DNA of 64,000 nt from an uncultured Candidatus Saccharibacteria bacterium (GCA_964394925.1 CAYMZG010000002.1:109738-173737); one strand, 5' to 3'. Shown: positions 1 to 18,565, counted from the first letter of the stretch. A program made the numbers and translations. The notes: generated by a model from the letters alone, not told the origin.

Positions 1-870
1 GTCGAGATGGTCGGCTTCGACGAGACCGTGATGGCACCGGCCCGCCGGCGACGTCGGCGCCGCTTCGTCACCGCGGTGGTCGACGTGACCGGCGGGCAGA
101 TCCTCGACATCTTCGAAGGGCGCGACGCCAAGGACCTGCGGGCCTGGATGGCCTCGATGCCGGCCGCCTGGCTCGCTGGGGTGCAGGTTGTCTCCGTCGA
201 CCCCCACGAGGGCTACCGCTCCGCGGTCGTCGGGCTCGACCCGGCCACCGGGGCGCAGAGCCCGCTGGCGGGGGCGACGGTGGTCGTGGACCCGTTCCAC
301 ATCGTGCGGCTCGCCAACCAGGCCGTCACCGGTGCCCGCCAGCGGATCCAACGCGAGACCCTCGAGCGGCGCGGCTGGAAGGGCGACCCGCTCTATGACA
401 TCCGCAAGCTGTTGCTGTTGGGCGCCGAACGCCTCGACGACACCGGCTGGGACCGGCTGCGCCAGGCGCTCAACGACGGCGACCCCGACGACACCGTGGT
501 CGACTGCTGGGTCGCGAAGGAGAAGGTCCGCGACGTGTACCTCACCGACGACCCCGCCGTCGCCGCCGAACACCTCGACGACGCCATCGCCTGGTGCACC
601 GCCCCCGAAGCCGGACCCGAGCTCGCCCGCCTCGCCAAGACCCTCCGCCGGTGGCGCACCGAGATCCTCGCCCACCACCACACCGGCGCGTCCAACGGCC
701 CGGTCGAAGCCGCGAACCTGCTCATCAAGCAGGTCAAGCGATCCGGACGCGGGTTCCGCAACCTCGCCAACTACCGACTCCGCATCCTCCTCGCCGGCGG
801 CGCCAACCCCGCCTGCAAGACTCAACCCATCACGAGCATCCGACCCCGCCGTCCCAGGTCAGTCGCGTAG
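1..870 (+). CDS. ISL3-family transposase, C-terminal ~290 aa (5' end lies outside the window)
   Basis: ORF 7..870 stays open in frame back to base 1. DPFHIVRLAN and NGPVEAANLLIKQVKRSGRGFRNLANYRLRILL resemble ISL3 (DDE_Tnp_ISL3) C-terminal motifs. Third codon positions are strongly GC-biased. Confidence 0.8.
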   Translation, partial: VEMVGFDETVMAPARRRRRRRFVTAVVDVTGGQILDIFEGRDAKDLRAWMASMPAAWLAGVQVVSVDPHEGYRSAVVGLDPATGAQSPLAGATVVVDPFHIVRLANQAVTGARQRIQRETLERRGWKGDPLYDIRKLLLLGAERLDDTGWDRLRQALNDGDPDDTVVDCWVAKEKVRDVYLTDDPAVAAEHLDDAIAWCTAPEAGPELARLAKTLRRWRTEILAHHHTGASNGPVEAANLLIKQVKRSGRGFRNLANYRLRILLAGGANPACKTQPITSIRPRRPRSVA

Positions 871-1157
871 GGCCAGTAAGAGACAGAGGTCATCGTCCCT
901 GGGACCGGCGCTCCGGCTCTCGCCGTGCCGCGGATGATTCGCGACCTAGAGCTCTTCTCAACTCAACCTGGCAGACCGGGCATTCGGTAGGGTGCTTCGG
1001 GACCGGGGCGCCTTCAAGACTGGGCGCCACGGGTTGGTGGGGTTCGCCCTACTCGGCACATGGCGTACAATACTGAAAGTGAATCAAGAGCACCAACACA
1101 CCATGAGACTCAATCGGAGCCGTCATCAAACCCCATCTAGCAGAGGCTACGCCGTAA

Positions 1158-2576
1158 ATGACTGAACACTCGCGCATCGAACTCATGGACTTCAGTCGGT
1201 CTGACGACGCGCTCTTCTTCCACTACCGGGTAGGTCCGTTCCGGTTCAACAATACGTTCTGGTACCGAGACTGCCACTTTCCGAGCCTCGAGGAATCCTA
1301 CGGTACCGAGTTTATGCATCGCATCTACTTCCATGTGGGTGCTTTCGAGATCAACAAGCTGGTAAGTCTCAACGCTCCAGAGATTTCTTTCGGCCCCTTC
1401 GATCGGTTCGTAACTCCGGCGTTCGTGGAACTTTGGACACAGATCGTTCACGGAGTGTGGGCGCAGTGGAGGTATGAAAATAACCTCCCGCAGTGGACAC
1501 CACCTTCTATTGTCTCGTCTCAACAGGCAGTTGATGAAGCTCTGCCGGCCACTGTCAAGGCGGGTGAGTCTCCCTTTCTCGCATTCTGTGGCGGTGGCAA
1601 GGACAGTGCGCTTGTTCAATGCCTGTTGGCAGGAAGCGGTGCGAACTACGAGACCTTTGTATATGCAAACAGTGTTTATGGGCGAGCGCAGAAGCAATTC
1701 GAAATCATTGAGCGCCTCCTTGCGGCTCTGCCGTCACGGCCAACTACGTACTTACAGGTATCTGATGACTTCCTCGAAGCACCACTTCAGCCGCTGCGCG
1801 AAGCCTTCCATATCAGTAGCGTCACGGCGGCCGAGACACCTTCGTCGATCTTCGAGGCGATCCCGCTTGCTCTCCAGCGCGGTTACACCCATATCGTGCT
1901 CGGCCACGAAAAGAGTGCTGACGTCGGGAATCTGATCTGGAATGAGACCGGCGAGGACGTGAACCACCAGTGGGGCAAGTCCAGTGAGGCAGAAGAACTC
2001 CTCAGCTCCTACCTGAAGAGCCAACTGGTCTCGAACCTAGACTTCTTTAGCATTCTCAAGCCGATTCACGATGTGGTTATCTTCGGTTCATTGCGTGACC
2101 TTCCAAGGGACGCAATCCTCGCCACGCACTCGTGCAATATTGACAAGCCGTGGTGCAAGCGTTGCGCCAAGTGCGTTTACGTGTGGCTCAACTATCTTGC
2201 CTATCTCGACGCGGACATTGTTTCTGAGATCTTCGACGAGAATCTGTTCGATGTCGAAGATAACTTCGGTCTTCTGACACAATTGATCGGTCTCACCGAC
2301 GCGACACCCTTCGAATGCATCGGCGAAGCGGACGAGTCGATGTTAGCGCTCGCCCTGTGCAAGGCTCGTGGCTACGAGGGCGCGTTCTTGGACAACGCTC
2401 AAATCCCCGCCGACCTCTCAAAGACCGTTATGAAGTACACCAAGGTGGACTCCTCCTACTCGGGGATGCCACAGGAGCTGGCTAGTGTGATAGGCGAGCT
2501 CGAGCGAAGCGCGGCAAGTACCCGGTCGTGGATCATTCGCACGCTGCAACAAGCGGGCGACCAGTCGGAGAGCTAA
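1158..2576 (+). CDS. QueC-like PP-loop ATP pyrophosphatase family protein with ~140-aa N-terminal extension (QatC/Cap9-like architecture)
   Basis: PP-loop CGGGKDS at aa 144-150 (variant of SGGxDS). C-terminal Cys cluster C326-x6-C-x2-C-x2-C resembles the QueC zinc site. GC is visibly lower than in the flanking DNA. Confidence 0.6.
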   Translation: MTEHSRIELMDFSRSDDALFFHYRVGPFRFNNTFWYRDCHFPSLEESYGTEFMHRIYFHVGAFEINKLVSLNAPEISFGPFDRFVTPAFVELWTQIVHGVWAQWRYENNLPQWTPPSIVSSQQAVDEALPATVKAGESPFLAFCGGGKDSALVQCLLAGSGANYETFVYANSVYGRAQKQFEIIERLLAALPSRPTTYLQVSDDFLEAPLQPLREAFHISSVTAAETPSSIFEAIPLALQRGYTHIVLGHEKSADVGNLIWNETGEDVNHQWGKSSEAEELLSSYLKSQLVSNLDFFSILKPIHDVVIFGSLRDLPRDAILATHSCNIDKPWCKRCAKCVYVWLNYLAYLDADIVSEIFDENLFDVEDNFGLLTQLIGLTDATPFECIGEADESMLALALCKARGYEGAFLDNAQIPADLSKTVMKYTKVDSSYSGMPQELASVIGELERSAASTRSWIIRTLQQAGDQSES

Positions 2577-2582
2577 GGGACT

Positions 2583-3902
2583 TTGAATTCAATCCGTTGT
2601 CATATGCAGGTCGTCCTCGAGACGGGCCTTGATCTTGATTCACAGGGCCTGATTCTTGCGGGCTACCAAAACGTTGCCTCACGGGTGGGGGCCGCTCTGA
2701 CGACACCGGCATGGGACGACCAGTCCGACTCCCAGGGGTCGGGCTTGGCGATAAGCGCTAAGGGCCGCCGAGGGTCACCGCTAATGCCAGCGTGGTTCCT
2801 CGAACTGCCGATGGATTGCACCAGCTTAGATCGTTCAGAAGCAGACAACGACCGGATCCGATTTCAGCCAGACCGCTGTGTCCTGAGGTTCTTCGACTAC
2901 GGCATCGCCATCCTCATGATTGACGGCCATGTGTCGACTTCTGCGGACTCCGACCTCCCGCCAAGCATCTTTGTTCGCGAAATTGAGCTACTCAGCGATA
3001 CGATTCCGTCGCTATTCCTTTCGGCAACCAGTTCCAGTGTCAGCTCGTTAAGGGCGGCGATCGAGAGCCAAGACTCCCAATTCGTGATTTCTGATCACAT
3101 CGCTCGCGAGATGAATACGGCTCTCGGTCGGCACTCGCAGGGTGCAGAGCAGGTACGACCGCTGTGGGTCCATCGCCTTCTTGCCTTCGACAAATCCTAC
3201 AGTGACCTCGATTTATCGCACTTGGTTGCGCTTCAGCGTCACCAAGAGGTTCGCATCGAGTCGGATAGTGATGAGTCCTACCGATTCATCCCCGGCCAAG
3301 GAACCTCGGTTGTTCTCTCCGAGGCTGGTGATTTGCCCGCCGAAATCGTTGAACCACTCGCGCTACTGAATGCGTACTACGCGGGCTCGAGCAAATACGA
3401 CGAGGCTGTGTTCTGGGGTATTTCCCAATTGCAAGCGATATCGCACGGCAAGGGTCGATACGGCGTCAAGTCGAAAGCGGACGAGATTCTTGCGTTGCAG
3501 GAGCGCGTCCTGCTATTCCGAGCCGCGGTCGATCACCAAGCGCATAACCTGTCACCGCAGGAACAGGTCGTGTGGCAGAAGATCTCCGCCGCATGGAACC
3601 TGCAACCTCTCATCGACGGTGTCGCCTCAAATGTTGCGACCTTAGACGGAATATTCCAGCATGTTGCAGAAAGCCGAAGGTCAGAGCAAGCTGATCGGCT
3701 TGCACTTCTTGTGCTGATCTTCACCGCCGCAAGCATTATGGGGGTCGGAGCAACACTGTTTCCTATTGTGGACGATGCGCCTGCCACGCTTCCAGTACTT
3801 GAGCGAGTACTGGTACTCGCTGGCCTTGTAATTGCGCCGTTGGTCGTGATCGGTGTCGTTGCTTTAATTGTGTGGCAGACAACACGTAGACGTGGTAGGT
3901 AG
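2583..3902 (+). CDS. membrane protein: ~370-aa soluble domain plus C-terminal two-TM hairpin (CorA / DUF155-like topology)
   Basis: It starts 7 nt after the stop of the upstream gene (TTG at 2583; alternative ATG at 2604). The C-terminus has two hydrophobic helices (LALLVLIFTAASIMGVGATLF, LVLAGLVIAPLVVIGVVALIVW) followed by RRRGR. The helical region before TM1 resembles a CorA/RMD1 stalk. Confidence 0.55.
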   Translation: MNSIRCHMQVVLETGLDLDSQGLILAGYQNVASRVGAALTTPAWDDQSDSQGSGLAISAKGRRGSPLMPAWFLELPMDCTSLDRSEADNDRIRFQPDRCVLRFFDYGIAILMIDGHVSTSADSDLPPSIFVREIELLSDTIPSLFLSATSSSVSSLRAAIESQDSQFVISDHIAREMNTALGRHSQGAEQVRPLWVHRLLAFDKSYSDLDLSHLVALQRHQEVRIESDSDESYRFIPGQGTSVVLSEAGDLPAEIVEPLALLNAYYAGSSKYDEAVFWGISQLQAISHGKGRYGVKSKADEILALQERVLLFRAAVDHQAHNLSPQEQVVWQKISAAWNLQPLIDGVASNVATLDGIFQHVAESRRSEQADRLALLVLIFTAASIMGVGATLFPIVDDAPATLPVLERVLVLAGLVIAPLVVIGVVALIVWQTTRRRGR

Positions 3903-4452
3903 CTGCGCAATGGTATTTCTGCAGGCCGTCCGAGTCTATTCGGGCGGCGGACTTCAAGTAAGCAGGTTTGTTGAGGCACCTTCACCGGATATGGCTCAGG
4001 CGCGGACCCTCGAAACAGCGGCAGACGGTGGCCTGTGGAACATCTACCTTGACCGTCCAGTTGGTCCCGTAGACGATCCCGAAGGCGTGACGGTGCTCCG
4101 TCTGGGGGACGGAACGTTCGCTTCTGCAGCCTACTCCACGGTCGGCTGGAACCACCGAACGGTGTTCAGCCCATGGTGTTCAGCGCCGACCTTTCGCGAT
4201 GCACTGCAAATCGTTTCGAAACGACGGCCGCGGTCTCGGTGTCCGCGTAGCTCCGAGCCCAGCGTAGGGTTGATTTTGTACGACGGGGTCCACCGGAGCG
4301 GAGCGTTGATGTACCCATGTGATCCGCGGTGCCTCGGGGAGCCAGGGCGATGGTGGCAGGGCGCGAAAGTGCCTGGTTTCTGCCGAACTAGAACTTGACC
4401 GGCCGGGGCCTACTTCTACGAAAAACAGCCCAATGGGGGGCCGGTCAGGCAC

Positions 4453-5217
4453 TCATGCGTCCTCGTTGATACGGCGCTGCAGGTCATCGAGGAAGAAGGC
4501 TCGCGCCTCGAAGCACGTGATGGCGCCACGGGTTAGTGCCGCTACCTTTCCGGGGTCATCGAGCCACTCCCTGATCGGCATGATGATGCTCTGCCCGTGA
4601 CGAGGGTCAATCTCAACATGGCGATTGAAGAACGTGTGATCGATTTCCAAGTCACTCGTTTCGCAGAACTTCTCGATCCCCGCCGTGACCCGTTCGTGCC
4701 TATACGGTGTCGAAGCTTCCATGCCGAAGATGATTGCTCCCATGACCTCAAGTTCTCGGTCCCCGCGGAACAAGTCGTAGATCACTGAGTGGTAGTAGCG
4801 GATTCCGGGAATCGGTAGCTCATCGTGCCAGTCTTCCGGATTCATTCCGATCGACCGCATGAACCTTCGGTAGAGTTCCGGGTGGGAAGGTCCGAAATCA
4901 CCAAGCTTTGGGTCGAAGCGTCGACCATATTCCTCGGCCAGAATCTCCGCGAGCGCTTCCTGTAGCGGCTCGACGCTGGACACAGTTATGGCGCCTGCCA
5001 GGTACTTACGGAACTGGCGCACGTGGCCGTAATACATTCCCGCGAATGCCCGCAGTTGGTCCAGGTCGAACGAGCCAGTGGCGATCCATTCCCATAGCGG
5101 GTGCTTCAACCCAACGTGGCTCTCGACTGCTTTTTCGATAGACCGCACGGCGTCAAGCTGAGAGTCCGTGAGTTGGTCGTTGTTCGCGTCGGGCAGATGC
5201 CAGTTCGTTGCTACCAT
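4453..5217 (-). CDS. heme-oxygenase-like / iron-containing redox enzyme family protein (PqqC/CADD-like fold)
   Basis: Start chosen at ATG 5217, with AAGGA 5 nt upstream. The longer ORF to 5508 has a nonsense-like N-terminus. LAEILAEEYG...SHPELYRRFMRSIG is typical of Haem_oxygenas_2-type proteins. Confidence 0.6.
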   Translation of the reverse strand: MVATNWHLPDANNDQLTDSQLDAVRSIEKAVESHVGLKHPLWEWIATGSFDLDQLRAFAGMYYGHVRQFRKYLAGAITVSSVEPLQEALAEILAEEYGRRFDPKLGDFGPSHPELYRRFMRSIGMNPEDWHDELPIPGIRYYHSVIYDLFRGDRELEVMGAIIFGMEASTPYRHERVTAGIEKFCETSDLEIDHTFFNRHVEIDPRHGQSIIMPIREWLDDPGKVAALTRGAITCFEARAFFLDDLQRRINEDA

Positions 5218-5428
5218 TGTCGTCCTTGCAGGAGGCTGGGGTGTGGGGGGCAACGGACGATAGCACGCGTCCCAATCTGAGGTCCGTGTGCACGTTCGGA
5301 CCACGGGCGGTACATGGCTCGGCCGAGACGGCCCTGAAAGCTCCCGCGACACGACGATGCGCTGCCGCAACTCCGCCAGCCTCGTATCGTCCTGCGGTCG
5401 CACAGACGCCACGTTCGAGGAGTACGAG

Positions 5429-5872
5429 ATGGCTACGAAGCAGTCCACGCAGAAGAACGGGCAACGACCTGGCCGCAAGCCAGGTACGAAGATGACCGAT
5501 GAGCACAAGGCGGCGCTTGCCGCCGGTCGGGAGTCAGGCCGAGCTGTGAGGGCGTACCTCCAGGCACTTGAGGATCACCGGCCAAGACGCGGCCGGAAGC
5601 GCACACCAGAGAGCATCCAGGCCCGGCTGGCCAAGATCGACGACCAGCTTGCCGGAGCCGATCCTGTCAAGCGGCTGAACCTGGTCCAAGAACGTCTCGA
5701 CCTCATCGCCGAGCAGGATGCGCTCAGCCAGACGACAGATCTGGCGGCGCTTGAGCAGGACTTCCGGAAGCACGCCAAGGCGTACAGCCAGAACAAGGGC
5801 ATTACCTACGCCGCTTGGCGAGAGGTCGGCGTACCGGCAGACATCCTGAAGGCTGCCGGCATCACGAGGTAG
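5429..5872 (+). CDS. hypothetical basic/coiled-coil protein, possible DNA-binding tail
   Basis: ATG 5429 has GAGGAG 6 nt upstream. The N-terminus is Lys/Arg-rich. The C-terminal ITYAAWREVGVPADILKAAGI resembles actinobacterial conserved hypotheticals. Confidence 0.5.
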   Translation: MATKQSTQKNGQRPGRKPGTKMTDEHKAALAAGRESGRAVRAYLQALEDHRPRRGRKRTPESIQARLAKIDDQLAGADPVKRLNLVQERLDLIAEQDALSQTTDLAALEQDFRKHAKAYSQNKGITYAAWREVGVPADILKAAGITR

Positions 5873-6036
5873 CTTGAGCGTCGGGTGACCGGACGCTCCA
5901 CGACGGTGGCCCCGGTGGCGCCTGATCCCACCCCTTTCTTAACGTCAGGCGTACATCGTTTGCGGGAACGGCGACCTTCGGCCCCTCCACCACCCGGAGG
6001 TCGCTGCTCCTGCGGGGCCCAGGATTGGTTGAGAGG

Positions 6037-6927
6037 CTACGGATGATCCGCCAGTCGCCGCTTGGTGATCTCGGCGTACTCGGCGTTCAGCTCGATGCCA
6101 ACGGCTCTCCGCCCAAGGCTTGCAGCGACTACTGCCGTCGTCCCGGACCCAAGGAACGGATCGAGCACGATGTCACCAGGCTTCGTACTGAGGAGGAGGC
6201 ACTGCTCCACTAGCTCGGTCGGGTAGGTGGCGAAGTGCGCGTCGGGCACCCCGACGGTGTTGATCTGCCAGACGTCTCGGATGCGTCGACCGTTCGGTCC
6301 GCTGAGCGCATCGACGAAGTATGTGTAGCGCTCGGACTTCGAGAACAGGAAGACATGCTCGTGGCTTCGCGTCGGGCGATCCCCGACGCTCTCTGGCTGA
6401 CAGTTCGGCTTGTACCAGATGACGTCTGACCTCAGGTACCAACCGGCGTCCTGCAGGGCGAAGGCCAGCCGCCACGGGATTCCGATGAGGTCCTTCGGCT
6501 TCAAGCCGTCCGGGGTCGCCGGCCTCCACTGAGCGGCACGTGCCGGGTTCTTCTTGTCGGGTGCCCGCCAGGTGCGACCTCCGGACGTGTAGCTGTCACC
6601 GATGTTGAGCCACACCACTCCGTCGTCTCTCAACACCCGGTGGACTTCGTCGAACAGGCTGGCGAGCGTCTTGATGTAGACGGGTAGCGGCTCGTCTCGG
6701 CCGAGATGCCCGTCGATGTCGTAGTCCCTCAGCGACCAGTAGGGCGGCGACGTCACGACGCACTGCACTGACTGATCCGGCAGCGCCGCTAGGACGTCCA
6801 CGGCGTTGCCGATGATGACCAAGGGTTGCTTGGCCTCGAGTTTGTCGAACCGGTAGATAGATCGATCGGTATGGCGACGGATCACTGCGCGCACGGCTGT
6901 TGCCTCCTGGCTCAGATTCTGGCGCAC
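6037..6927 (-). CDS. beta-class N4/N6 DNA methyltransferase (SPPY catalytic motif, likely m4C)
   Basis: Catalytic motif VVTSPPYW precedes the AdoMet motif VLDPFLGSGTT, which is the permuted beta-class order. GTG start at 6927. Confidence 0.85.
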   Translation of the reverse strand: MRQNLSQEATAVRAVIRRHTDRSIYRFDKLEAKQPLVIIGNAVDVLAALPDQSVQCVVTSPPYWSLRDYDIDGHLGRDEPLPVYIKTLASLFDEVHRVLRDDGVVWLNIGDSYTSGGRTWRAPDKKNPARAAQWRPATPDGLKPKDLIGIPWRLAFALQDAGWYLRSDVIWYKPNCQPESVGDRPTRSHEHVFLFSKSERYTYFVDALSGPNGRRIRDVWQINTVGVPDAHFATYPTELVEQCLLLSTKPGDIVLDPFLGSGTTAVVAASLGRRAVGIELNAEYAEITKRRLADHP

Positions 6928-7073
6928 GCCACAACCTGTGCCGCGAACGCCGGATGCTTGCTTGGCTGAGGGAGGCCTGCTACGCCTCCGATGAGGGCGA
7001 GCCTTGAGGCAGGCTCACGAGCCGGACGCTGGTGAACCGTCACTCAGCGTGATGCCCGTCCTATGCTTCAGCA

Positions 7074-7883
7074 GTGGACGGGAGCCTTGAGAACATCGCC
7101 GATGTCCTTGAGCAAGCCTCGCCGCAGCGTCGAGCGCTGCTTGAGGCGGTGGCTGCCTTGTCTGAGGTGCATGTTCCGCGAGTGCTGCAGCTCGTCGAGC
7201 GACTGCAGCAGGCAGTCGCTGTCGAGTCGCTGACGCCCGACCATCCGATCTTCACGAACGAGTGGGTCGACCGGTTCGCCATCCGGCTGCAGGTCCATCA
7301 CGCCACGAACCTCGCACCCCTGAACCGTACTGGTTTCGAGGACGCCTTCACGGAGTGCTGCGAGGCAGCGGGCATCCCGGTCGAACCTGCCACCAGTGCG
7401 ACCAACCGGTTTTGGGACGTGAAGGTCGGTGATCTTCACGCGTCGCTCAAGACCGAAGGCTCGCAGGCGATCGCACCGGACTTCATCCACATCTCCAAGC
7501 TGTCGGAAGCGGCATGGATTCAGGACGTGCGTACGGCGACGGCCCGCCGCGACAAGACCTTGGAGCTTTTCTCGACGTACCGAAGCCTCGTCGACGTCAT
7601 CTACATGCTCAGGATCTTCAAGGCGCTCAACCCGATCAGGTACGAACTGGTCGAGATCCCCGTCGACCTGTTCGACCCGATCCAACAGCTCAGTCGCAAC
7701 GATTTCACCGCCGACGCCCCGAGCATTCTCATTCCCCCTGGAAGCAACCCTCCCGACTACCGCCTTCGTCTCGACCGGTCGGACGCCAAGATTACGATTG
7801 CCCGGCTTCGGAAGGATCGGTGCCATGTCCATGCGGTGTGGCTGGTCCACACGTCCTCAAGCGGCACTCTGGCCGAGGACTAG
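7074..7883 (+). CDS. putative type II restriction endonuclease partner of the methyltransferase
   Basis: It is divergent from the MTase across 146 bp. GC3 bias supports the + frame over the antisense ORF 7068..7850. FWDVKVGDLHASLKTEG could be a PD-(D/E)xK-like D...SxK core. No family was recognised. Confidence 0.45.
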   Translation: MDGSLENIADVLEQASPQRRALLEAVAALSEVHVPRVLQLVERLQQAVAVESLTPDHPIFTNEWVDRFAIRLQVHHATNLAPLNRTGFEDAFTECCEAAGIPVEPATSATNRFWDVKVGDLHASLKTEGSQAIAPDFIHISKLSEAAWIQDVRTATARRDKTLELFSTYRSLVDVIYMLRIFKALNPIRYELVEIPVDLFDPIQQLSRNDFTADAPSILIPPGSNPPDYRLRLDRSDAKITIARLRKDRCHVHAVWLVHTSSSGTLAED

Positions 7884-8495
7884 CTGATCCCAGCCGGCAA
7901 CGAAGGCCGCCGCTTGCATGTGCAGCACCGGCTCGATGTCACGACCGTCGGTGCGCTGCTGCCAGAGCTTGCCTCGGTGAACATCGAGCAGTGCGATCGC
8001 CGGACCGCCGATTGACGGCCCGAAGTGCCGGTCAAGGAGGTACAGCAACGGGTTGGCGACCCGTTGCGTCAACGTGAGCTTCTCCTTCAGGTGCAACTTC
8101 ACGATGGTGTCAACGCCGTTGATCCGCAGCAGCCACTCAGGGTTCACCCTGACCTGCAGCCGGTCGTGCGTCCATGTCGCGGGCTTTGGCAGCCCGACGA
8201 ACTCGATCGTCTTGCGGCCCCAGAAGCGCTCGTAGCCCTTGCAGGCCGACTGGTACTGCTCGGCGCGGTTGTCCTTGGCGCCTGCGCTCACTTGACGAAG
8301 CAGCTCTCGACCGCCGCCTCGACGGTGGTTCTTCTCGACGTCCTCACGCCAGCGTGACCAGAAGTCAGCCGACGGCGAGTAACCCTGTTCATACTGGCGT
8401 CGGATCTCGCGGACCTTGGCGAGTTGGCCGAGGGGATCGCTGACGACGAAGTCGCCGAAGCGGGTCATGCTGATCACGATGGGCTTGTTCGCCAC
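7857..8495 (-). CDS. hypothetical protein (orphan, no motif recognised)
   Basis: 212-aa ORF with balanced, protein-like composition. Its 3' end overlaps the 3' end of 7074..7883 by 27 bp. Confidence 0.5.
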   Translation of the reverse strand: MANKPIVISMTRFGDFVVSDPLGQLAKVREIRRQYEQGYSPSADFWSRWREDVEKNHRRGGGRELLRQVSAGAKDNRAEQYQSACKGYERFWGRKTIEFVGLPKPATWTHDRLQVRVNPEWLLRINGVDTIVKLHLKEKLTLTQRVANPLLYLLDRHFGPSIGGPAIALLDVHRGKLWQQRTDGRDIEPVLHMQAAAFVAGWDQLVLGQSAA

Positions 8496-8651
8496 GATGA
8501 GCCTCCAAACGGAGCTGCGGGCTGGCCCGCAGTGAGAGCCGATCTGACTCCTGAGCCGATCCTAAGCAGGGGGTGTGACACGGAAGCCGGGAGGAGAGGC
8601 TTGGACGGTGCGCTCTACCCGTCCTGACCAGGACGGACGTAGGATCAACCC

Positions 8652-8939
8652 GTGCCGGAGAATCCTCGGAAAGACGCCTTCAAGGTCCTGATCATGGAGC
8701 GGATGCGGGCCAGCAAGAACCAAGCGGTCGCGAAAGATGACCTGATCGCTCACGGCCGCGCTGAGCGGCCCGAGCTGTTCGATGACGGCGAAGCGTGCTT
8801 CCCCGGTTGCAAGGGCCGGCACCCGAAGTGGCGCCACGAGTTCGATCGGGCAATCTACGACCTCACACAGACGAGACCGCCGAAGATGGAGACTGTCGAG
8901 GGCCGTCGGGGCTTCTACTGGCTGGGGAGAGGTGGCTAG
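8652..8939 (+). CDS. small winged-helix-like protein (Mrr_N-like)
   Basis: GTG 8652 has AGGA 7 nt upstream (alternative ATG at 8694). HPKWRHEFDRAIYDLTQ...GRRGFYWL resembles the N-terminal wHTH of restriction-system proteins. Confidence 0.4.
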   Translation: MPENPRKDAFKVLIMERMRASKNQAVAKDDLIAHGRAERPELFDDGEACFPGCKGRHPKWRHEFDRAIYDLTQTRPPKMETVEGRRGFYWLGRGG

Positions 8940-9361
8940 CGACGGCGCCCACGTCGAGCCGGTCTGATTGCGATCCCGGCGTCAGCCAGGTACTTCCGCA
9001 CGGTCTTGCTGTCGAAGCCGAGCTTGGCCCCCACCTGCTTCAGGCTCAGGCCGCTCTCGTACAGACGGGTTGCTTCCTTGACCTCATCAGGCGACAGCCC
9101 GATTGGCTGTCGACGCGAGACCCCGTGCCGATCAAGGTGTGCCAAGACCGTGCTCTTGCTGATGCCGAACAGCGCCACGAGTTCCTTCACGGTGGCACCC
9201 TCCTGGTACGTCAGGGCCAGTTGGGCGCTCTCATCGTCAGTGAGGCGGCGGTACGGCAGCAGCTTCGGATTGGTACGTGTCGGCCGGTCTGGCATGTTCT
9301 TGGGCACCGGCACGGCCACGAGCGCTTGCAGGGTGTCGAGGTGTTCGCGAAGCTGGCCCAT
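8936..9361 (-). CDS. DNA-binding protein with two resolvase-type HTH repeats (start uncertain: 9361 or 9295)
   Basis: The two HTH units are ATVKELVALFGISKSTVLAHL and LSLKQVGAKLGFDSKTVRKYL. The track ORF start at 9406 runs into low-GC DNA and is unlikely. No catalytic recombinase domain is present. Confidence 0.6.
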   Translation of the reverse strand: MGQLREHLDTLQALVAVPVPKNMPDRPTRTNPKLLPYRRLTDDESAQLALTYQEGATVKELVALFGISKSTVLAHLDRHGVSRRQPIGLSPDEVKEATRLYESGLSLKQVGAKLGFDSKTVRKYLADAGIAIRPARRGRRR

Positions 9362-9493
9362 CAGGAGTACCAATGAAAATGCCTCACAGTAGTGGGGCTT
9401 TTTCATTGATTGAATCGATAAAACCTACAATTGTTACATTCCTCACAGCAATAACTCATATTGTTGTCATACTGTAGTAGTGGAAGGAGTCTT

Positions 9494-9586
9494 ATGAATC
9501 AACTTTCCATCCCCCGCTACTATATTCGGGATGCTGAAACCAACGAGTTATGGTGCTTCGACGCCAAAGCTCTCGCATCTGCGTAG
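9494..9586 (+). CDS. possible 30-aa small ORF
   Basis: ATG 9494 is preceded by GGAAGGAG 5 nt upstream. It encodes MNQLSIPRYYIRDAETNELWCFDAKALASA. It is too short for the ORF track and no homology was recognised. Confidence 0.2.
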   Translation: MNQLSIPRYYIRDAETNELWCFDAKALASA

Positions 9587-9675
9587 CGACATAACATACC
9601 GTTACATACAAGCGCATAGTATTTATGCGTGATAGCCGTGTTTTCCCTGCCCCCATCTGTTAAAATAGCTCGGTT

Positions 9676-9765
9676 GGAAGGGTGCAGGAGTGGTTGAACT
9701 GGACGGTCTCGAAAACCGTTGTGCGGGCAACCGTACCGAGGGTTCGAATCCCTCCCCTTCCGCCA
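9676..9765 (+). tRNA. tRNA-Ser (anticodon CGA), CCA encoded
   Basis: Hand-folded cloverleaf. Acceptor GGAAGGG/CCCTTCC, D stem CAG/CTG, anticodon stem ACGGT/ACCGT with loop CTCGAAA. It has a long variable arm, T arm GAGGG-TTCGAAT-CCCTC, discriminator G and CCA. Confidence 0.93.
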
Positions 9766-9918
9766 ATGTTTGTAGCTCAGCCGAAGGCTGGGATATAAAC
9801 ATTGCTGTATGAGGAGGGATGAAGAACCCATGGCACGAAGTGGCAGGGTTCGGCGCAGCGAGGACGCACACAGGTGTTTACACCGAGTACGCCGCAGCAA
9901 AGGAGGCCAAAGGCTGAT

Positions 9919-9937
9919 ATCCCTCCCCTTCCGCCAA
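9919..9937 (+). repeat. 19-bp exact direct repeat of the tRNA-Ser 3' end (att-like)
   Basis: ATCCCTCCCCTTCCGCCAA occurs at 9748-9766 (T arm/acceptor/CCA of the tRNA) and again at 9919-9937. Confidence 0.9.
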
Positions 9938-9992
9938 ACGTGGCAGACTTAGTTTACTGATTGTTACACCTGTACTATAGTAAGCCGTAATT

Positions 9993-10961
9993 ATGCTTGT
10001 GCTTATTTCAATTGCCCTCTTTGTACTCTCAAGCGTTTTTCTTGTTTGGTACCTTCTAGCACACGATCATGGCCCTAAAGAGCCCAAGAGTGGCCTGTTG
10101 GCGGCTGTTGGCTTTGGGGTTCTGGCTGTAATGGCCGCTGCTTGGGCGGAATATGTCTTTATGCGCATGGATCCGTCAGAAACCACTGTTCCAATCGTAT
10201 TGTTTGGATTGGCGATGCTTGTTGGCATTATTGAGGAGCTTTCGAAGTTTGGACCACTTGCCCTGTTCATTCGGAACAAGCCATATTTTAACGAGCACAC
10301 CGATGGCATAATCTATTTTGGTATTGTAGGTCTCACCTTTGGGTTGTTAGAAAATATTGTCTATGCTGTCGTTTATAGTAAAAGTCTTGAGGGTGGACAG
10401 CTGACCGGCATAACCAGGCTATTCGTGTTGCTATTCTTCCATGCCGCCACAACAGGCATTGTGGGCTACTACTATGCCAAGGCGAAAATTCAAAAACAGT
10501 CCATCATAAAGCCACTTATTGCGCTGTTCATATTCGCCACTATTCACGGTGTATATGACTTCATGTTTTTCTTCTCGGCTAGCAGTTATTCTGCCAGCTC
10601 GGGAGAAATAGATGACAACAAAGCAGTATTAATTATTCTGGCAATCGTGAGTGGCTTTATTATCTCGGCGCTGCTCAACACCTTCCTGTTTTTGTATTAT
10701 CGGCGCGCGCAACAGTGGGACGCCAGCATTGGTTTAGCTATAGATCCCAAACTAACCCCCCAAACAACCTATAGCCAGCCGCTGACCGCACAGACCACGG
10801 TGAATTCTGCCCTGCCCGCACAACCGATGGCACCAGCACCCACTCCACTTCAAGCACCAGTTACACCAGCAGCTACAACTGCGACCCCAACCCCTGTTGC
10901 TGCACCGACTCCAACTCAATCTGTTCCGTTTGTTGTGCAGCCACCACAGCCAAGAGCCTAG
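9993..10961 (+). CDS. PrsW-family intramembrane protease with Pro/Thr-rich C-terminal tail
   Basis: Multi-TM protein with EELSKF, FHAATTGIVGYY and HGVYDF motifs typical of PrsW. Confidence 0.7.
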   Translation: MLVLISIALFVLSSVFLVWYLLAHDHGPKEPKSGLLAAVGFGVLAVMAAAWAEYVFMRMDPSETTVPIVLFGLAMLVGIIEELSKFGPLALFIRNKPYFNEHTDGIIYFGIVGLTFGLLENIVYAVVYSKSLEGGQLTGITRLFVLLFFHAATTGIVGYYYAKAKIQKQSIIKPLIALFIFATIHGVYDFMFFFSASSYSASSGEIDDNKAVLIILAIVSGFIISALLNTFLFLYYRRAQQWDASIGLAIDPKLTPQTTYSQPLTAQTTVNSALPAQPMAPAPTPLQAPVTPAATTATPTPVAAPTPTQSVPFVVQPPQPRA

Positions 10962-11035
10962 TTGTTTCGATGTATCAAAGAACGATAGTGTATAGTTAAG
11001 CATAAGTATATTAGTAATAAGTACTCGAGAATCCA

Positions 11036-11974
11036 ATGCCACCAGAAAATCAATCACCAGTGCCGTCGGTGCCACCACAGCAACCTATCACACCACAACC
11101 CCAACCTGCCTACGCGCAGCCTGCGTCGGTTCCGCCACAGGCGCCCATTGCACCACAGGCGCCTGTTGGGCCGACCGCAACACCAATACAGCCTCCATCA
11201 GTTCCAGGTCAGCCACAAATGCAACTAAACCCGGCCTACGGCCACGACAAGCTGGCGGTCGCCAGCTTAGTATTGGGTATTGTTTCCCTGCCTGCTTCTA
11301 TTTTGACCATCTTCACCCTACCTATCCCTATTACAGGCATCGTTCTCGGTATTATTAGCCTTAAACGAAATAAGGGCATGGCAATCGCCGGCATGATATT
11401 GTCTACCATTGGTATCATCTTATCGGTCGCTATCATAGTGTTCAGTATGAGGGCAGCAAGCAACAAGAATGCTACAACTTCCAAGAATAATACTTCATCA
11501 ACCACCGAGACTCAGGACGAGGCCTCGATAGTAAGCTCAAATTGTTACAAATTCTCTTTGCCAAAACCATTCACACAAGCAGACGTCATAAAAAACACAG
11601 ACTGTATCACCGAAGTAATTACTGAAGCAAATGATGACGACATAGTAGTTAACTCATCTACGTCACGCGATGTGCCGGCCAATGAGCTTGATTCGTATCT
11701 CAAGAACGTTGCTGCCACGGCGGAGCGTAAAATGGGAAGTAAGATAAAATTCAATACTCATAGCTTCATAACGCTAGATGGGGTGCGTGCCTACCAGGCA
11801 ACGGCCACAGAAAACAGCGGCCCATACAAGTACGCCGGTTACATAATTGCACTGTCACCAAAGGACTACACTTCGGTTAATGGGTCAAAACTCAGAGCAT
11901 TTATCATTGCCTATGACTCAGCCACCAGCAAGGACAGGCTGGACGAACTTGTTAAATCATGGCATTGGCAGTAA
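11036..11974 (+). CDS. membrane protein: Pro/Gln-rich N-terminus, DUF4190-like TM pair, extracellular domain
   Basis: The TM region LVLGIVSLPASILTIFTLPIPITGIVLGIISLKRNKG...AGMILSTIGIILS is DUF4190-like. Confidence 0.6.
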   Translation: MPPENQSPVPSVPPQQPITPQPQPAYAQPASVPPQAPIAPQAPVGPTATPIQPPSVPGQPQMQLNPAYGHDKLAVASLVLGIVSLPASILTIFTLPIPITGIVLGIISLKRNKGMAIAGMILSTIGIILSVAIIVFSMRAASNKNATTSKNNTSSTTETQDEASIVSSNCYKFSLPKPFTQADVIKNTDCITEVITEANDDDIVVNSSTSRDVPANELDSYLKNVAATAERKMGSKIKFNTHSFITLDGVRAYQATATENSGPYKYAGYIIALSPKDYTSVNGSKLRAFIIAYDSATSKDRLDELVKSWHWQ

Positions 11975-15136: not shown

Positions 15137-15937
15137 ATGAAAGTTTCATTACGACAAGCAGAAATAATTGCTATGGCGGCTGGCCCGGATAGTGAGCCGG
15201 CGCACATAGAATACACCCTCGAGGAGAACCAAACATGGCAAACCATTACAGGGGCGTTATCGCCAATGTGGCAAGAACACGCGGCCGAAAGAGTGCTCGA
15301 GGCAAGCGCAACTCTGTCACTGCCCACCGATCACATCCCACAGCTTACCGATGTTACTGAGGTACTCAAACAACACACAGGATTCATATTTCGTGCGGTT
15401 GGTGGTCTTGCCCCGCGCCAAGCCTTCTTCAGTGGTTTAGCGGAGCAACAATTCTTATCGACGCAATTTATTCGTGGCGCGAGCAGTCCCTTTTACACCG
15501 AGCAACCCGATGTAGTACACGAGCTTCTTGGTCATGCTACCCTGTTGGCTGATCGTGACTTTGCTGAACTGCATAGACAGGCCGGCGCAGCACTAACAAG
15601 GGTCGAGACGGAAGCGGCCAAACAGTTCATTGCCAACGTATGGTGGTTTTCGGGTGAATTTGGCGTCACGCGTAACGGCGGTCGTGTTAAGGCGGTTGGA
15701 GCGGGCATACTATCTTCGCTCAATGAGCTTGAACACGCCAGCGTAGCGGAATTGGCGCCACTCGACCCCGTGGCCATGGGCGTACAGGCTTACCGAATCG
15801 ATCACCTACAACCAAAGCTGTTCGCGGCCGAGTCATGCGAACACCTGATCAACGAAGTTGGTAGTTTTTTTGATGCCGTTTCTGATGGCGCAGTGCTGAA
15901 CATAATGAAGGAGAAATTCAATGGAACCACTAGCTAA
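15137..15937 (+). CDS. phhA: aromatic amino acid hydroxylase (phenylalanine 4-monooxygenase-like)
   Basis: VHELLGHATLLADRDFAELHRQAG and WFSGEFGV motifs. RBS AAGGAG upstream. Confidence 0.8.
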   Translation: MKVSLRQAEIIAMAAGPDSEPAHIEYTLEENQTWQTITGALSPMWQEHAAERVLEASATLSLPTDHIPQLTDVTEVLKQHTGFIFRAVGGLAPRQAFFSGLAEQQFLSTQFIRGASSPFYTEQPDVVHELLGHATLLADRDFAELHRQAGAALTRVETEAAKQFIANVWWFSGEFGVTRNGGRVKAVGAGILSSLNELEHASVAELAPLDPVAMGVQAYRIDHLQPKLFAAESCEHLINEVGSFFDAVSDGAVLNIMKEKFNGTTS

Positions 15938-16012: not shown

Positions 16013-18565
16013 CTACGAAAACCGCTTGTACTCAGACTGTTGCTTTTCTAACAACTCTTTGGCATCTGTTAACTGTTGTTTTGTTTGATCTACAAGCTTC
16101 TTCGGAGCCTTGTCAACGTAAGCCTTGTTGGCCAGCCGGCCTTCGAGTTGGGCAATGGATTTTTGGGTCTGCTCAATCTTTGCTGACAGCTCGTTAGTGA
16201 ACTGCTTAACAGTCTCTTGGCCAAGGTCTAACCAGGCATTATGACGCGGGTTGGTGAGCTGAAGGCCCTCTCCCCTTGACGGCTGCCTGGTTACTGCCGA
16301 GAGATTTGCCAAGACCTGTATGAGGTCGGCATGCTCGCTGATGAACGCGTCATCTTCATATTGTAGCTGTGGTTTGCCCACCTTAAGGCTCGATGAGATA
16401 AAGCGTATCTCAGTCACGAGTTCACGAATCTCTTCAAAAATTGCCGCTGAAGAGTCCTTTGTCTCGGCGGCTTGAGGCCACGAACTAATTGCCAAGAGAG
16501 TGTCACTTTCCCATTGCAGGGTTTGCCATATCGTTTCACTCACAAATGGTGCGAAGGGATGTGCGAGTTTAAGTATTGTTTCAAGGCCATAAGCCAACAG
16601 TCCCTTGTTAAGGCTTACCTTGCTGGCCTCGATGTACCAGTCGGCAAAATCATCCCATACGAAGTGATACAACATCTCGTAGGCTTCGCTGAAGCGAAAG
16701 CCGTCAAGCATGCTTGTCATTTCCTTAATGGTGGCGTTCAGTCGGCTAACAAGCCAGAAGTCTGCTGCAGACTCAGGGTTTGGTGTTGCCTTTTTGCCCA
16801 CGTCATCACCAACCTTGTCTTCAACATAGCGTGCAATATTCCATAACTTGTTACAGAAGTTTCGGGCGGCTACGAGGCGATTCTCGTCGTACGACTGGTT
16901 GTTGCCCGCTGATTGCCCCTGGAGTATGCCCATGCGGAAAGCGTCCGAGCCATACTGCTCAACTTTCTCCATAGGGTTAATAACATTTCCCTTACTCTTG
17001 CTCATCTTGGCGCCATGTTCGTCGAGGACGAGTCCATGCAGGTATACGTTTTCAAAGGGCACATCCCCTGTTATATACAAGCCGAGCATGATCATGCGTG
17101 ACACCCACGGATACAATATGTCCGCCCCCGTTTCCATAACACTCAAGGGGTAGAAATCGGCAAAATCTTCACCGTCAGGGTAGTCGAGTGTGGCGTATGG
17201 CCAACTACTGCTACTGAACCAGGTATCAAAAACGTCTGGATCGCGGTGATATGTCTTGCCGTCAACCTCTAGTATCTCTTGGTCAACCCGCGTATCGAAA
17301 ATCCAGTCGTCTTTGTCGTCAACATTTTGAAAGGCTGGAATCGGTATGCCCCACGCGATCTGCCGGCTAATATTCCAGTCACGCAACCCCTGTAAATACG
17401 TGATGAGCTGTTTCTTCTTAGAGGCCGGGTGAAAAGTGATCTTCCCTGCCTCCAGTACCTTGATTGCCTCTTGGGCAAGCGGCTGCATATCAATAAACCA
17501 CTGATCCATCAACATCGGTTCAATAACCGTGCCACACTTATAGCAGGTGCCAACACGGTTGTGGTACTTCTCGTCGACTTTAATGAGCAGTCCCTTCTCT
17601 TTCAGAGCTGCAACAACGGCCTTGCGAGCTTCCATGATCGTCATGCCCCTGAAGCTGCCGGCTTTTTCATTCATGGTACCACCGTGATTTATCACGCGTA
17701 CAGCGGGTAGGTTGTGCCGTTGCGCGGCGTCCCAGTCGTCGAATGAGTGCCCCGGAGTGATCTTTACCACCCCTGTTCCAAACGCAGGATCAACCATTTC
17801 ATCAGCAATAACTTCAACGTCAAATGATCCATCTGGACCATCTATAGTCACGACCTTATTCACCCATTCGGTATATCGCTTATCATCTGGATGAACCGCC
17901 ACTGCAACATCCCCCAAAATTGTTTCAGGGCGGGTCGTAGCCAGCTCAAACGGTCCATACTTTAGGTAGTACAAAGGCGTTTGAGCATCTTCGTACGCCA
18001 CTTCGATATCGGCGAAGCCGGTCCGGTGAAACGTACAGTAGTTTACTAAGCGTTCGCCTCTGTAAATGAGCTTTTCATCCCACATTTTTTTAAATGTGGC
18101 ATAGGCTCGCTTAACGATCTTTTCATCAAGGGTATATACATAGCGCGACCAGTCGAGGCTGGCGCCGAGCTTTCGGAATTGCGACTCGTAGTTATCGCGG
18201 TTCTCGGCCACAAAATCCCAGATTTGGCTATACAACTCTTCTCGGGAGTAGTCGAAGCGGCTCTTGCCTGCTTTGGCAAGCTGTTTTTCGTAAACTACTT
18301 GTGTTTCAAAGCCGGCGTGATCTGCCCCGGGCAAGAACAATGTCTTGTTCCCAAGCATACGGTTGTATCTGATCATGACATCTTCAATGCCGAGTGTTAA
18401 GCCGTGTCCGAGATGCAAATTACCATTGGCATTTGGTGGCGGTATGACAATACTAAAAGTGTCCTTTCCGCCCCTGTTCTCAGGCTTAAAGGCGCCCTGC
18501 TTTTCCCAGAGCGCGTAGATATCTGATTCATAGTTTTGAGGTTCGTAAACCTTCGGTAGTTTCAT
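16013..18565 (-). CDS. valS: valine--tRNA ligase
   Basis: HIGH motif PPPNANGNLHLGHG, KMSKS motif KMSKSKGN, 850 aa with a C-terminal coiled coil. Confidence 0.95.
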   Translation of the reverse strand: MKLPKVYEPQNYESDIYALWEKQGAFKPENRGGKDTFSIVIPPPNANGNLHLGHGLTLGIEDVMIRYNRMLGNKTLFLPGADHAGFETQVVYEKQLAKAGKSRFDYSREELYSQIWDFVAENRDNYESQFRKLGASLDWSRYVYTLDEKIVKRAYATFKKMWDEKLIYRGERLVNYCTFHRTGFADIEVAYEDAQTPLYYLKYGPFELATTRPETILGDVAVAVHPDDKRYTEWVNKVVTIDGPDGSFDVEVIADEMVDPAFGTGVVKITPGHSFDDWDAAQRHNLPAVRVINHGGTMNEKAGSFRGMTIMEARKAVVAALKEKGLLIKVDEKYHNRVGTCYKCGTVIEPMLMDQWFIDMQPLAQEAIKVLEAGKITFHPASKKKQLITYLQGLRDWNISRQIAWGIPIPAFQNVDDKDDWIFDTRVDQEILEVDGKTYHRDPDVFDTWFSSSSWPYATLDYPDGEDFADFYPLSVMETGADILYPWVSRMIMLGLYITGDVPFENVYLHGLVLDEHGAKMSKSKGNVINPMEKVEQYGSDAFRMGILQGQSAGNNQSYDENRLVAARNFCNKLWNIARYVEDKVGDDVGKKATPNPESAADFWLVSRLNATIKEMTSMLDGFRFSEAYEMLYHFVWDDFADWYIEASKVSLNKGLLAYGLETILKLAHPFAPFVSETIWQTLQWESDTLLAISSWPQAAETKDSSAAIFEEIRELVTEIRFISSSLKVGKPQLQYEDDAFISEHADLIQVLANLSAVTRQPSRGEGLQLTNPRHNAWLDLGQETVKQFTNELSAKIEQTQKSIAQLEGRLANKAYVDKAPKKLVDQTKQQLTDAKELLEKQQSEYKRFS

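Follow-up and report, generated by a model that had tools for sequence, protein, structure and literature searches.

The question raised by this locus is whether a block of DNA rich in guanine plus cytosine (GC), lying against a Saccharibacteria-type chromosome, is a foreign island or two genomes joined by mistake. The DNA is a window of 64,000 nt (the whole stretch that was analysed) from an uncultured Candidatus Saccharibacteria bacterium (GCA_964394925.1, CAYMZG010000002.1:109738-173737), within which we take positions 1-9372 as the island side and 9373-64000 as the native side. A sequence-only reading of the window had offered both a host-derived island and a chimeric contig. A foreign island is favoured by a tRNA-Arg remnant at the break, by a junction that a different assembler reproduces from a single run and by the lack of a shared repeat across it, and a chimera is unlikely. 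The left side is a real, horizontally acquired island of at least 9.4 kb in a Saccharimonadales chromosome, and we put at roughly 60% the probability that it arrived by site-specific integration at the very last bases (3′) of the gene for tRNA-Arg(GCG).

The compositional step and the tRNA-Arg(GCG) end

In 1-kb bins, GC content is 0.55-0.71 over the first 9 kb and 0.45-0.54 over the remaining 54 kb, with an overall value of about 0.49 for the right side. Bins of 200 bp narrow the step considerably: values of 0.62-0.67 extend across 5200-9400, with 0.62 at 9201-9400, and fall to 0.415 at 9401-9600. Tetranucleotide usage follows the same division, the left segments correlating with the right side at only r=0.13-0.30, as compared with r=0.71-0.94 for same-sized windows of the right side itself. 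These profiles, which had been proposed as a check, bear out the sharp compositional junction of the sequence-only reading.

The left side is not homogeneous. Its first block (1-950, a transposase fragment) has 71% GC and a third-codon-position GC (GC3) of 0.92; the second (951-4400, with two open reading frames (ORFs) at 1158-3902) has 55-57% GC and a GC3 of 0.61-0.67; and the third (4400-9372, with ORFs between 4453 and 8495) has 63% GC and a GC3 of 0.71-0.82. By comparison, GC3 is 0.42-0.62 in 35 right-side ORFs. The 55% and 63% GC blocks correlate with each other at r=0.75 in tetranucleotide usage. The left side is foreign to the right side and is a mosaic of at least three GC classes, not one uniform actinobacterial block; its third codon positions, previously described as overwhelmingly G/C, deserve that description in parts such as 1-950 and do not across 951-4400.

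The identity of the right side is clear. Its valyl-tRNA synthetase (ValRS, 16013-18565) has 341 relatives in GTDB species genomes, and the best 80 of these, at 58-69% identity, are nearly all labelled Saccharibacteria or Saccharimonadales; the source species itself is not among the GTDB representatives covered by this ValRS search. The ValRS flanks of the best 80 relatives served as comparison loci (L-numbered below). Right-side neighbours recur in them at high frequency (HTH-HAD in 75, g12268 in 53, g18942 in 73 and the Mur ligase in 71), and the conserved order runs ValRS, HTH-HAD, g12268, tRNA-Ser(CGA), tRNA-Arg(GCG). The right side is thus a syntenic Saccharimonadales chromosome, as its proposed Saccharibacteria identity implied, and the 80 loci contain no relative of any of the ten left-side proteins. 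Sorted by taxon, then, the right side is Saccharimonadales and the left side only partly actinobacterial.

This synteny predicts which tRNA gene should lie at the break. ARAGORN was run on the 80 loci, where the conserved tRNA cluster downstream of ValRS consists of Ser(CGA), Arg(GCG), Ser(GCT) and Ser(TGA). Both Ser(CGA) and Arg(GCG) occur in the ValRS flank of 44 loci, separated by 70-3990 bp (70-303 bp in 20 of the 44) of DNA with native GC content in every case (44/44). An Arg-then-Ser order on one strand also occurs in relatives, for example in L014 with a gap of 157 bp, and tRNA-Arg(GCG) is single in each region examined. In the 64-kb window, ARAGORN and Rfam find no intact tRNA-Arg(GCG). 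Its last 33 nt and the following 58 nt were compared in 49 relatives, all of other species, in which the gene is intact and the site therefore empty. The features at the break are as follows.

9362..9372, + strand: proposed displaced tRNA fragment, or core of the right attachment site (attR), CAGGAGTACCA; an 11-base stretch matching the end of Saccharimonadales tRNA-Arg(GCG), namely its 3′ acceptor strand, discriminator base and CCA.
9373..9408, + strand: native intrinsic terminator of tRNA-Arg(GCG), ATGAAAATGCCTCACAGTAGTGGGGC..., composed of an A-run, a hairpin and a T-run.
9676..9765, + strand: tRNA-Ser(CGA), found by ARAGORN (Rfam tRNA, 54.6 bits).

The fragment CAGGAGTACCA equals CAGGTGTACCA of L017, L036, L046 and L077 at 10 of 11 bases. 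Left of 9362 all resemblance to a tRNA ends, and the opposite strand there encodes the N-terminus of a helix-turn-helix (HTH) protein. Neither the window nor the assembled Logan contigs described below contain GGAGTACCA (as a 9-11-mer) a second time. A CCA end is encoded in the tRNA-Arg(GCG) of 49/49 relatives, and an A-run, hairpin and T-run directly follow it in most of them, as judged by eye and not counted; the same layout stands directly after tRNA-Arg(GCG) in L031, L048 and L056. In L031, for example, the CCA is followed by ATGAAAAAGCCGG...CCGGCTTTTTCATTGG, and in the window it is followed by ATGAAAATGCCTCACAGTAGTGGGGCTTTTTCATTG. The hairpin of the window has a 16-pair stem (17-nt arms), a 4-nt loop, a folding free energy of -22.5 kcal/mol and a z-score of -4.8. 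A terminator scan calls it on the + strand, the orientation expected for a + strand tRNA-Arg on its left, and in a BLAST search of 9362-9992 against the loci it matches the tRNA-Arg(GCG) 3′ flank of L078 (87.5% over 40 nt, E 8e-7) and of L013.

Several details of the sequence-only reading change accordingly. The hairpin and the tRNA-Ser it placed near the break are both present; the hairpin has a stem of 16 pairs and not 9, and belongs to the native side. The tRNA of interest is not the tRNA-Ser about 310 bp away but the missing tRNA-Arg(GCG), whose last 11 bases and terminator stand at the junction. Moreover, the break lies between 9372 and 9373 instead of at about 9,362, as fixed by comparison with a second assembled context of the island end and with the tRNA ends of relatives. 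Two candidates were rejected along the way: the hairpin as an attachment or recombination hairpin of the island, since it is the native tRNA-Arg terminator, and tRNA-Ser as the integration target, since it lies on the wrong side, is intact and has a downstream repeat of its own that is accounted for by a separate element.

The second context comes from contigs of the Logan collection, which match the island as follows.

L082, SRR13287419: window 1-2604 plus 418 bp further left, 100% identity.
L084, SRR13287419: window 2595-6225, 100% identity.
L083, SRR13287418: window 2245-3931, 100% identity.
L087, SRR13287418: window 5847-8620, 100% identity.
L081, SRR26348422: window 650-5842, 100% identity.
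L085, SRR26348420: window 4626-5894, 100% identity.
L086, SRR26348422, 3581 bp: window 5816-9372, identical, then 24 nt of different, high-GC sequence, GCAGGGCCCTCCCGTCCTCGAAGG, in place of the terminator.
L088, SRR13287419, 1457 bp: window 8297-9753 without a mismatch, running from island genes through the junction into tRNA-Ser.

L086 and the window agree through the CCA and differ from 9373 onward, the contig end of L086 reading ...GGAGTACCAGCAGGGCCCTCCCGTCCTCGAAGG. Divergence immediately after the CCA is the pattern expected if ...CAGGAGTACCA is an attachment (att) identity block that ends at a tRNA 3′ end. Island pieces are 100% identical in the SRR263484xx runs, where the right-side proteins that were checked have no exact match, which argues for the presence of the island DNA outside this Saccharibacterium as well and for a very recent transfer. 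The second context could be the element in another, high-GC genome or an excised circle. As a separate observation, the CCA followed by GCAGGGCCCTCCCGTCCTCGAAGG (positions 1-24 of L086) reads as the opening of a GC-rich hairpin, with its first arm and its loop (CCCTCCCGTCC TCGAA GG...), at which point the contig ends; a terminator after the tRNA of a high-GC host would resemble this continuation.

How the island arrived

The evidence is best accommodated by integration of the island at tRNA-Arg(GCG). Positions 1-9372, together with at least 418 bp further left, would form the right-hand part of an island whose own site-specific recombinase recombined a short identity block (...CAGGAGTACCA) with the tRNA-Arg(GCG) 3′ end. 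After such an event, the opposite island end, to the left of the window, would carry an intact tRNA-Arg(GCG), ending in ...GTACCA, together with the gene for the recombinase; the integrase of tRNA-targeted islands usually adjoins the intact tRNA. The displaced 3′ fragment and the terminator would be left at the visible right end, with a direct repeat between the intact tRNA and the fragment. The island would recently have resided in a high-GC host, probably a member of the Actinomycetota, where it would have gained its ISL3 element, and the second context would be the chromosome of that host or the excised circular form. An intact tRNA-Arg(GCG) elsewhere is also required by the codon usage of the right side: CGT and CGC make up 67% of its Arg codons, so the genome cannot do without this tRNA.

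It is conceivable, moreover, that a single mobile element uses tRNA 3′ ends as integration sites in two partners, a high-GC host (probably actinobacterial) and the Saccharibacterial epibiont of that host. This is a tentative proposal with the odds tilted against it, and the corollary that GCAGGGCCCTCCCGTCCTCGAAGG would be the flank of the host's own tRNA, or part of the element's circular form, stands or falls with it at the same doubtful level.

A number of points weigh against integration at the tRNA gene. The tRNA-like block measures just 6-11 nt, 6 of them certain, and is thus shorter than most described identity blocks in tRNA genes; by our estimate, crossovers in the anticodon loop or T-loop would leave fragments of about 20-45 nt. 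Because the island runs off the start of the window, a second repeat copy and an intact tRNA-Arg would be out of view. Among the ten ORFs of the visible 9.4 kb, family searches found no gene for an integrase or excisionase and none for replication or transfer, and searches of plasmid and phage collections and of IMG/VR yielded no relative of the island. The second context is represented by just 24 nt, the named relatives of one island gene product, a MurL-family protein, are not actinobacterial, and L088 may derive from the same reads as the deposited metagenome-assembled genome (MAG), which would leave room for library artefacts.

The explanation that competes best with tRNA-directed integration accepts the junction as real and dispenses with a recombinase. 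In it, DNA of the host would have been taken up (for example by natural competence) and joined by illegitimate, microhomology-mediated recombination, with GTACCA as a 6-bp microhomology and the tRNA-Arg body deleted or moved. The very short shared block (6 bases certain, 11 at most), the lack of a recombinase gene within the visible 9.4 kb and the mosaic of three compositions, as expected from random donor DNA, all suit this account, and Saccharibacteria are reportedly naturally transformable (work on Southlakia), which also counts in its favour. It makes the position of the breakpoint an accident, however. We estimate the chance of landing on the last 6-11 bases of a tRNA gene at about 1e-3 to 3e-4, given some 45 tRNAs in about 1 Mb, and the donor breakpoint would also have to coincide with the very base at which L086 diverges. 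Moreover, deletion of the tRNA-Arg(GCG) body would remove the decoder of 67% of Arg codons unless a second copy existed, and in relatives the gene is single in the region examined. We consider this route unlikely.

Next is an artefact, in which library preparation or assembly fused a Saccharibacteria contig with high-GC DNA of another organism, for example an actinobacterium. The distribution of the island across sequencing runs lends this some colour: its DNA is 100% identical in two runs of a second project (SRR26348420 and SRR26348422), in which none (0) of the right-side proteins checked has an exact match and the island end continues differently; island genes were recovered in more runs than chromosomal genes; and the species is absent among the GTDB representatives searched. 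Exact right-side genes occur in SRR13287418 and SRR13287419 only, and these runs also hold island pieces; none of the four runs turned up in a literature search. Exact-sequence look-ups place left- and right-side proteins together on one 213,008-bp NCBI contig, and a second assembler, working on a single run, gives the identical junction in L088. The sequence common to both sides or contexts at the junction is at most 11 bases, with no repeat of k-mer length. The Logan assembly graph uses k=31, and such a graph cannot cross between genomes that share 11 bases or fewer, so the junction k-mers must be present in the reads. An assembler chimera is therefore excluded; a library chimera is not. A random chimera would not, however, settle on the CCA of precisely that tRNA which the synteny leads one to expect here, and had the true chromosome carried tRNA-Arg and its terminator at full depth, both assemblers would have had to take a rare path. 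Taken as a whole, the artefact is very improbable.

Finally, native Saccharibacterial DNA with ordinary within-genome GC variation has practically no chance of being the answer: the 951-4400 block does come near the upper range of the right side, but the tetranucleotide correlations, an Actinomycetota-type insertion sequence (IS) at 71% GC and the absence of relatives for all ten left-side genes (0/10) from the 80 Saccharimonadales flanks set the two sides apart and rule against a single lineage.

Gene content of the island and its surroundings

The ISL3 transposase, the methyltransferase-endonuclease pair and the HTH ORF that the sequence-only reading had listed on the left are all present by family matches. 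The visible island encodes the following features.

1..950, + strand: 3′ part of an ISL3-family IS; the transposase coding sequence stops at 870 and runs off the window start (Pfam DDE_Tnp_ISL3, E 8.8e-49).
1158..2576, + strand: MurL-family protein of 472 aa (Pfam PF26299 MurL_N and PF26298 MurL_epimerase_C), in the 55% GC block.
2604..3902, + strand: 432-aa protein with a CorA-like C-terminal membrane region (PADLOC CorA-like, E 4.6e-6, residues 289-426); gene call in L081.
3910..4398, + strand: 162-aa ORF; gene call in L081 and L084, no family matches.
4453..5217, - strand: haem-oxygenase-like di-iron enzyme of 254 aa, CADD/TENA/PqqC-like (Pfam Haem_oxygenas_2, E 1.7e-18, and TENA_THI-4).
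5429..5872, + strand: 147-aa basic protein with an upstream GAGGAG Shine-Dalgarno sequence (start-codon survey); exact protein in NCBI and Logan, no family matches.
6037..6894, - strand: type II DNA methyltransferase of the N4/N6 class (Pfam N6_N4_Mtase, E 1.4e-50; PADLOC MTase_II, 378 bits).
7074..7883, + strand: SmaI-like type II restriction endonuclease (Pfam SmaI, E 1.6e-9, 38 bits against a 27.3-bit cut-off; PADLOC REase_II, 74 bits).
7857..8495, - strand: 212-aa protein (g7857); exact protein on record, no family matches.
8936..9361, - strand: double HTH DNA-binding protein of 141 aa (Pfam HTH_38 and HTH_23), with an alternative start at 9373; the last island gene.

The closest named relative of the transposase is an "ISL3 family transposase [Actinomycetota bacterium]" at 71%, and its best plasmid matches are Actinomycetota only. 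Its relatives are 435-445 aa long, and a search with the full-length protein returned IS-sized contigs only. L082 carries the ISL3 region 418 bp further left, all of it transposase. The left end of the IS lies outside the window, no clear right terminal inverted repeat was found for it, and a repeat search of 1-9800 found no terminal inverted or direct repeats marking a transposon.

MurL is a UDP-MurNAc-L-Ala-L-Glu epimerase. The product of 1158-2576 scores 91.9 bits against a cut-off of 700 bits with the NCBIfam MurL_Xanthmoales model and, judged on its sequence, is a member of the wider MurL Pfam family only; nor does the neighbouring gene, where a MurD2-type partner was sought, have a Mur ligase domain. 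Its relatives are 44-63% identical. The named ones, at 44-47%, belong to Haliangium (Myxococcota), Pseudomonadota, Caldilineaceae (Chloroflexota), Chitinophagales (Bacteroidota), Deferribacteres and Acidobacteria. Among its neighbours, the 432-aa protein has no Pfam or NCBIfam match, and the di-iron enzyme reaches 56 bits, below cut-off, with the NCBIfam CADD family. It was also observed that the stretch 1158-5217, at 55-60% GC, comprises the MurL-family gene, the CorA-like membrane protein, the 162-aa ORF and a CADD/BesC-like di-iron enzyme, which from these family assignments may form a small enzyme cluster.

The methyltransferase and endonuclease lie next to each other and both have family-level matches, as in a type II restriction-modification (R-M) system. 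The pairing of an N4/N6-class methyltransferase with a SmaI-family endonuclease is like that of SmaI-type type II systems, and among relatives of the methyltransferase in JGI data (68-83% identity) the close ones are named cytosine-N4-specific. Avoidance of CCCGGG, considered as a sign of long residence of the R-M system, is not seen on the chromosome side (3 observed against 3.3 expected).

The only plasmid relative of the HTH protein is in Microbacterium (44%), and the sole one in JGI metagenomes (39%) sits on a contig of 66% GC that has no tRNA close to it and is informative for its composition only. Its TnsD match is weak (19 bits, below cut-off) and there are no Tns genes, for which reasons Tn7-like targeting was set aside. 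By sequence similarity, the ISL3 and HTH relatives point to Actinomycetota, so that the "actinobacterial-type" label formerly applied to the left side suits these two genes and does not suit the MurL-family gene. A megablast of 1-9400 found no match in plasmid and phage collections, and IMG/VR scans found no relatives of the HTH protein or of g7857; for the latter reason the island is not recognisably phage.

On the native side of the junction, one small ORF separates the terminator from tRNA-Ser.

9494..9586, + strand: 30-aa ORF (MNQLSIPRYYIRDAETNELWCFDAKALASA) with a strong Shine-Dalgarno sequence, GGAAGGAG; the spacer that holds it, from the tRNA-Arg terminator to tRNA-Ser, is native and has 41% GC.

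Its exact product is annotated on the NCBI source contig and forms a cluster without any other member.

Downstream of tRNA-Ser(CGA) is a different type of element, here called a tail element, with a layout of tRNA, terminator, about 100-140 nt of conserved sequence (X) and a direct repeat, 14-22 nt long, of the 3′ end of that same tRNA, from T-loop to CCA. In the window it spans 9766-9937, with an X of about 115 nt and 17-nt repeat copies at 9749-9765 and 9921-9937. The same layout follows 27 of 186 tRNAs in the window and loci, as compared with 1 in an upstream-side control, and was found after 4/4 tRNA species examined. It occurs in L002, L003, L005, L006, L018, L027, L037, L044, L046, L048, L053, L057 and L063, and further in L064, L066, L069, L070, L071, L074, L077 and L080. 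The X sequences fall into at least two multi-member families. In L006, two X cores of about 90% identity lie beside different tRNAs, each with a repeat that fits the tRNA beside it. Seven X cores were used to build a covariance model, which gave 19 matches in 1.47 Mb, 17 of them 63-114 nt downstream of a same-strand tRNA. A 9-pair hairpin of the X core is paired in 98.6% of cells, with compensatory changes in 8 of 9 pairs, in an alignment that was fitted to the model; slid controls gave 27-52%. There is no match in Rfam. The tail element may represent a new structured RNA or else a new mobile element, miniature in size and targeting tRNAs; in either case it shows tRNA 3′ ends to be recurrent insertion points in the order Saccharimonadales.

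Further observations concern the remainder of the right side. A phenylalanine-hydroxylase-like gene at 15137-15937 (Biopterin_H, E 6e-55) lies between ValRS and the HTH-HAD gene, and has no relatives in the Saccharimonadales flanks (0/80), where ValRS and HTH-HAD sit close together; with a GC3 of 0.51 and native composition, it may be an older acquisition. Between tRNA-Ser(CGA) and g12268, positions 9993-11974 encode a PrsW-like membrane protease and a DUF4190/DUF6264 protein. For both, relatives are absent from the ValRS flanks of the 80 loci, so the stretch adjoining the tRNA cluster is variable in this order even apart from the island. Finally, L011, L024 and L031 have a ValRS and tRNA cluster that are clearly Saccharimonadales-like and carry the MAG labels Burkholderiaceae, Pristimantibacillus and Limnocylindria, which suggests mis-binned or mislabelled contigs in public MAGs.

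Relation to known elements and meaning for Saccharibacteria

One comparison is with actinomycete integrative and conjugative elements (AICEs; see PMC3218068). Examples such as pSAM2 and SLP1 are rich in GC, measure about 9-24 kb and insert into the 3′ ends of tRNA genes in Actinomycetota. Such an element would fit the Actinomycetota-type IS and the overall GC content seen here. Of the AICE hallmark genes int, xis, rep and FtsK-like tra, none was found in the visible 9.4 kb, and the MurL-family cargo has non-actinobacterial named relatives.

A second comparison is with the tRNA islands catalogued by Islander (Hudson, Lau & Williams 2015, PMC4383910), which are defined by a regenerated tRNA gene and a displaced fragment at their two ends and for which anticodon-loop and T-loop crossover sublocations are listed. 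Like them, the locus has DNA of foreign composition against a tRNA 3′ fragment, an identity block that ends at the tRNA 3′ end, relatives with an uninterrupted site, and an accessory cargo, here an R-M system, an IS and enzymes. Unlike them, only one end is in view, with no integrase in the visible 9.4 kb, and the host is a reduced-genome Saccharibacterium whose chromosome lies about 13-22 GC points below the island. The architecture is that of an ordinary tRNA-associated genomic island; what is unusual is its occurrence in a reduced Candidate Phyla Radiation (CPR) epibiont, the size of the compositional gap and the identical copy elsewhere.

Acquisition of foreign genes by episymbiotic Saccharibacteria has been reported for the arginine deiminase system and nrdD (PMC8764695, PMC7427843), and horizontal gene transfer has been used to guess the hosts of Saccharibacteria (PMC11659515). 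Moreover, predicted Saccharibacteria phages are targeted by actinobacterial spacers (PMC10746230). The reported transfers are of single genes or operons, inferred from phylogeny and largely ameliorated, whereas the present island spans several genes, is unameliorated, has an insertion point that could be mapped and recurs at 100% identity in another context.

Saccharibacteria live as obligate epibionts and have tiny genomes, and the host of nearly every environmental lineage is unknown. An unameliorated foreign block, an insertion point known to the base and an identical copy elsewhere together are direct evidence that DNA flowed into such a cell very recently. With the island, a genome in which much biosynthesis is missing gains a restriction system and an enzyme of the MurL family, related to peptidoglycan. 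There is also a lesson for curation, in that contamination need not be the cause when GC changes sharply along a CPR contig, and a tRNA remnant followed by its terminator offers a test that can be made from sequence. If the second context is an Actinomycetota chromosome, the island names the host, and a mobile element works across the phylum boundary between host and parasite. Should the element indeed integrate in both partners, the window would have caught a shuttle that is active between phyla and that ties an uncultured Saccharimonadales species physically to its host.

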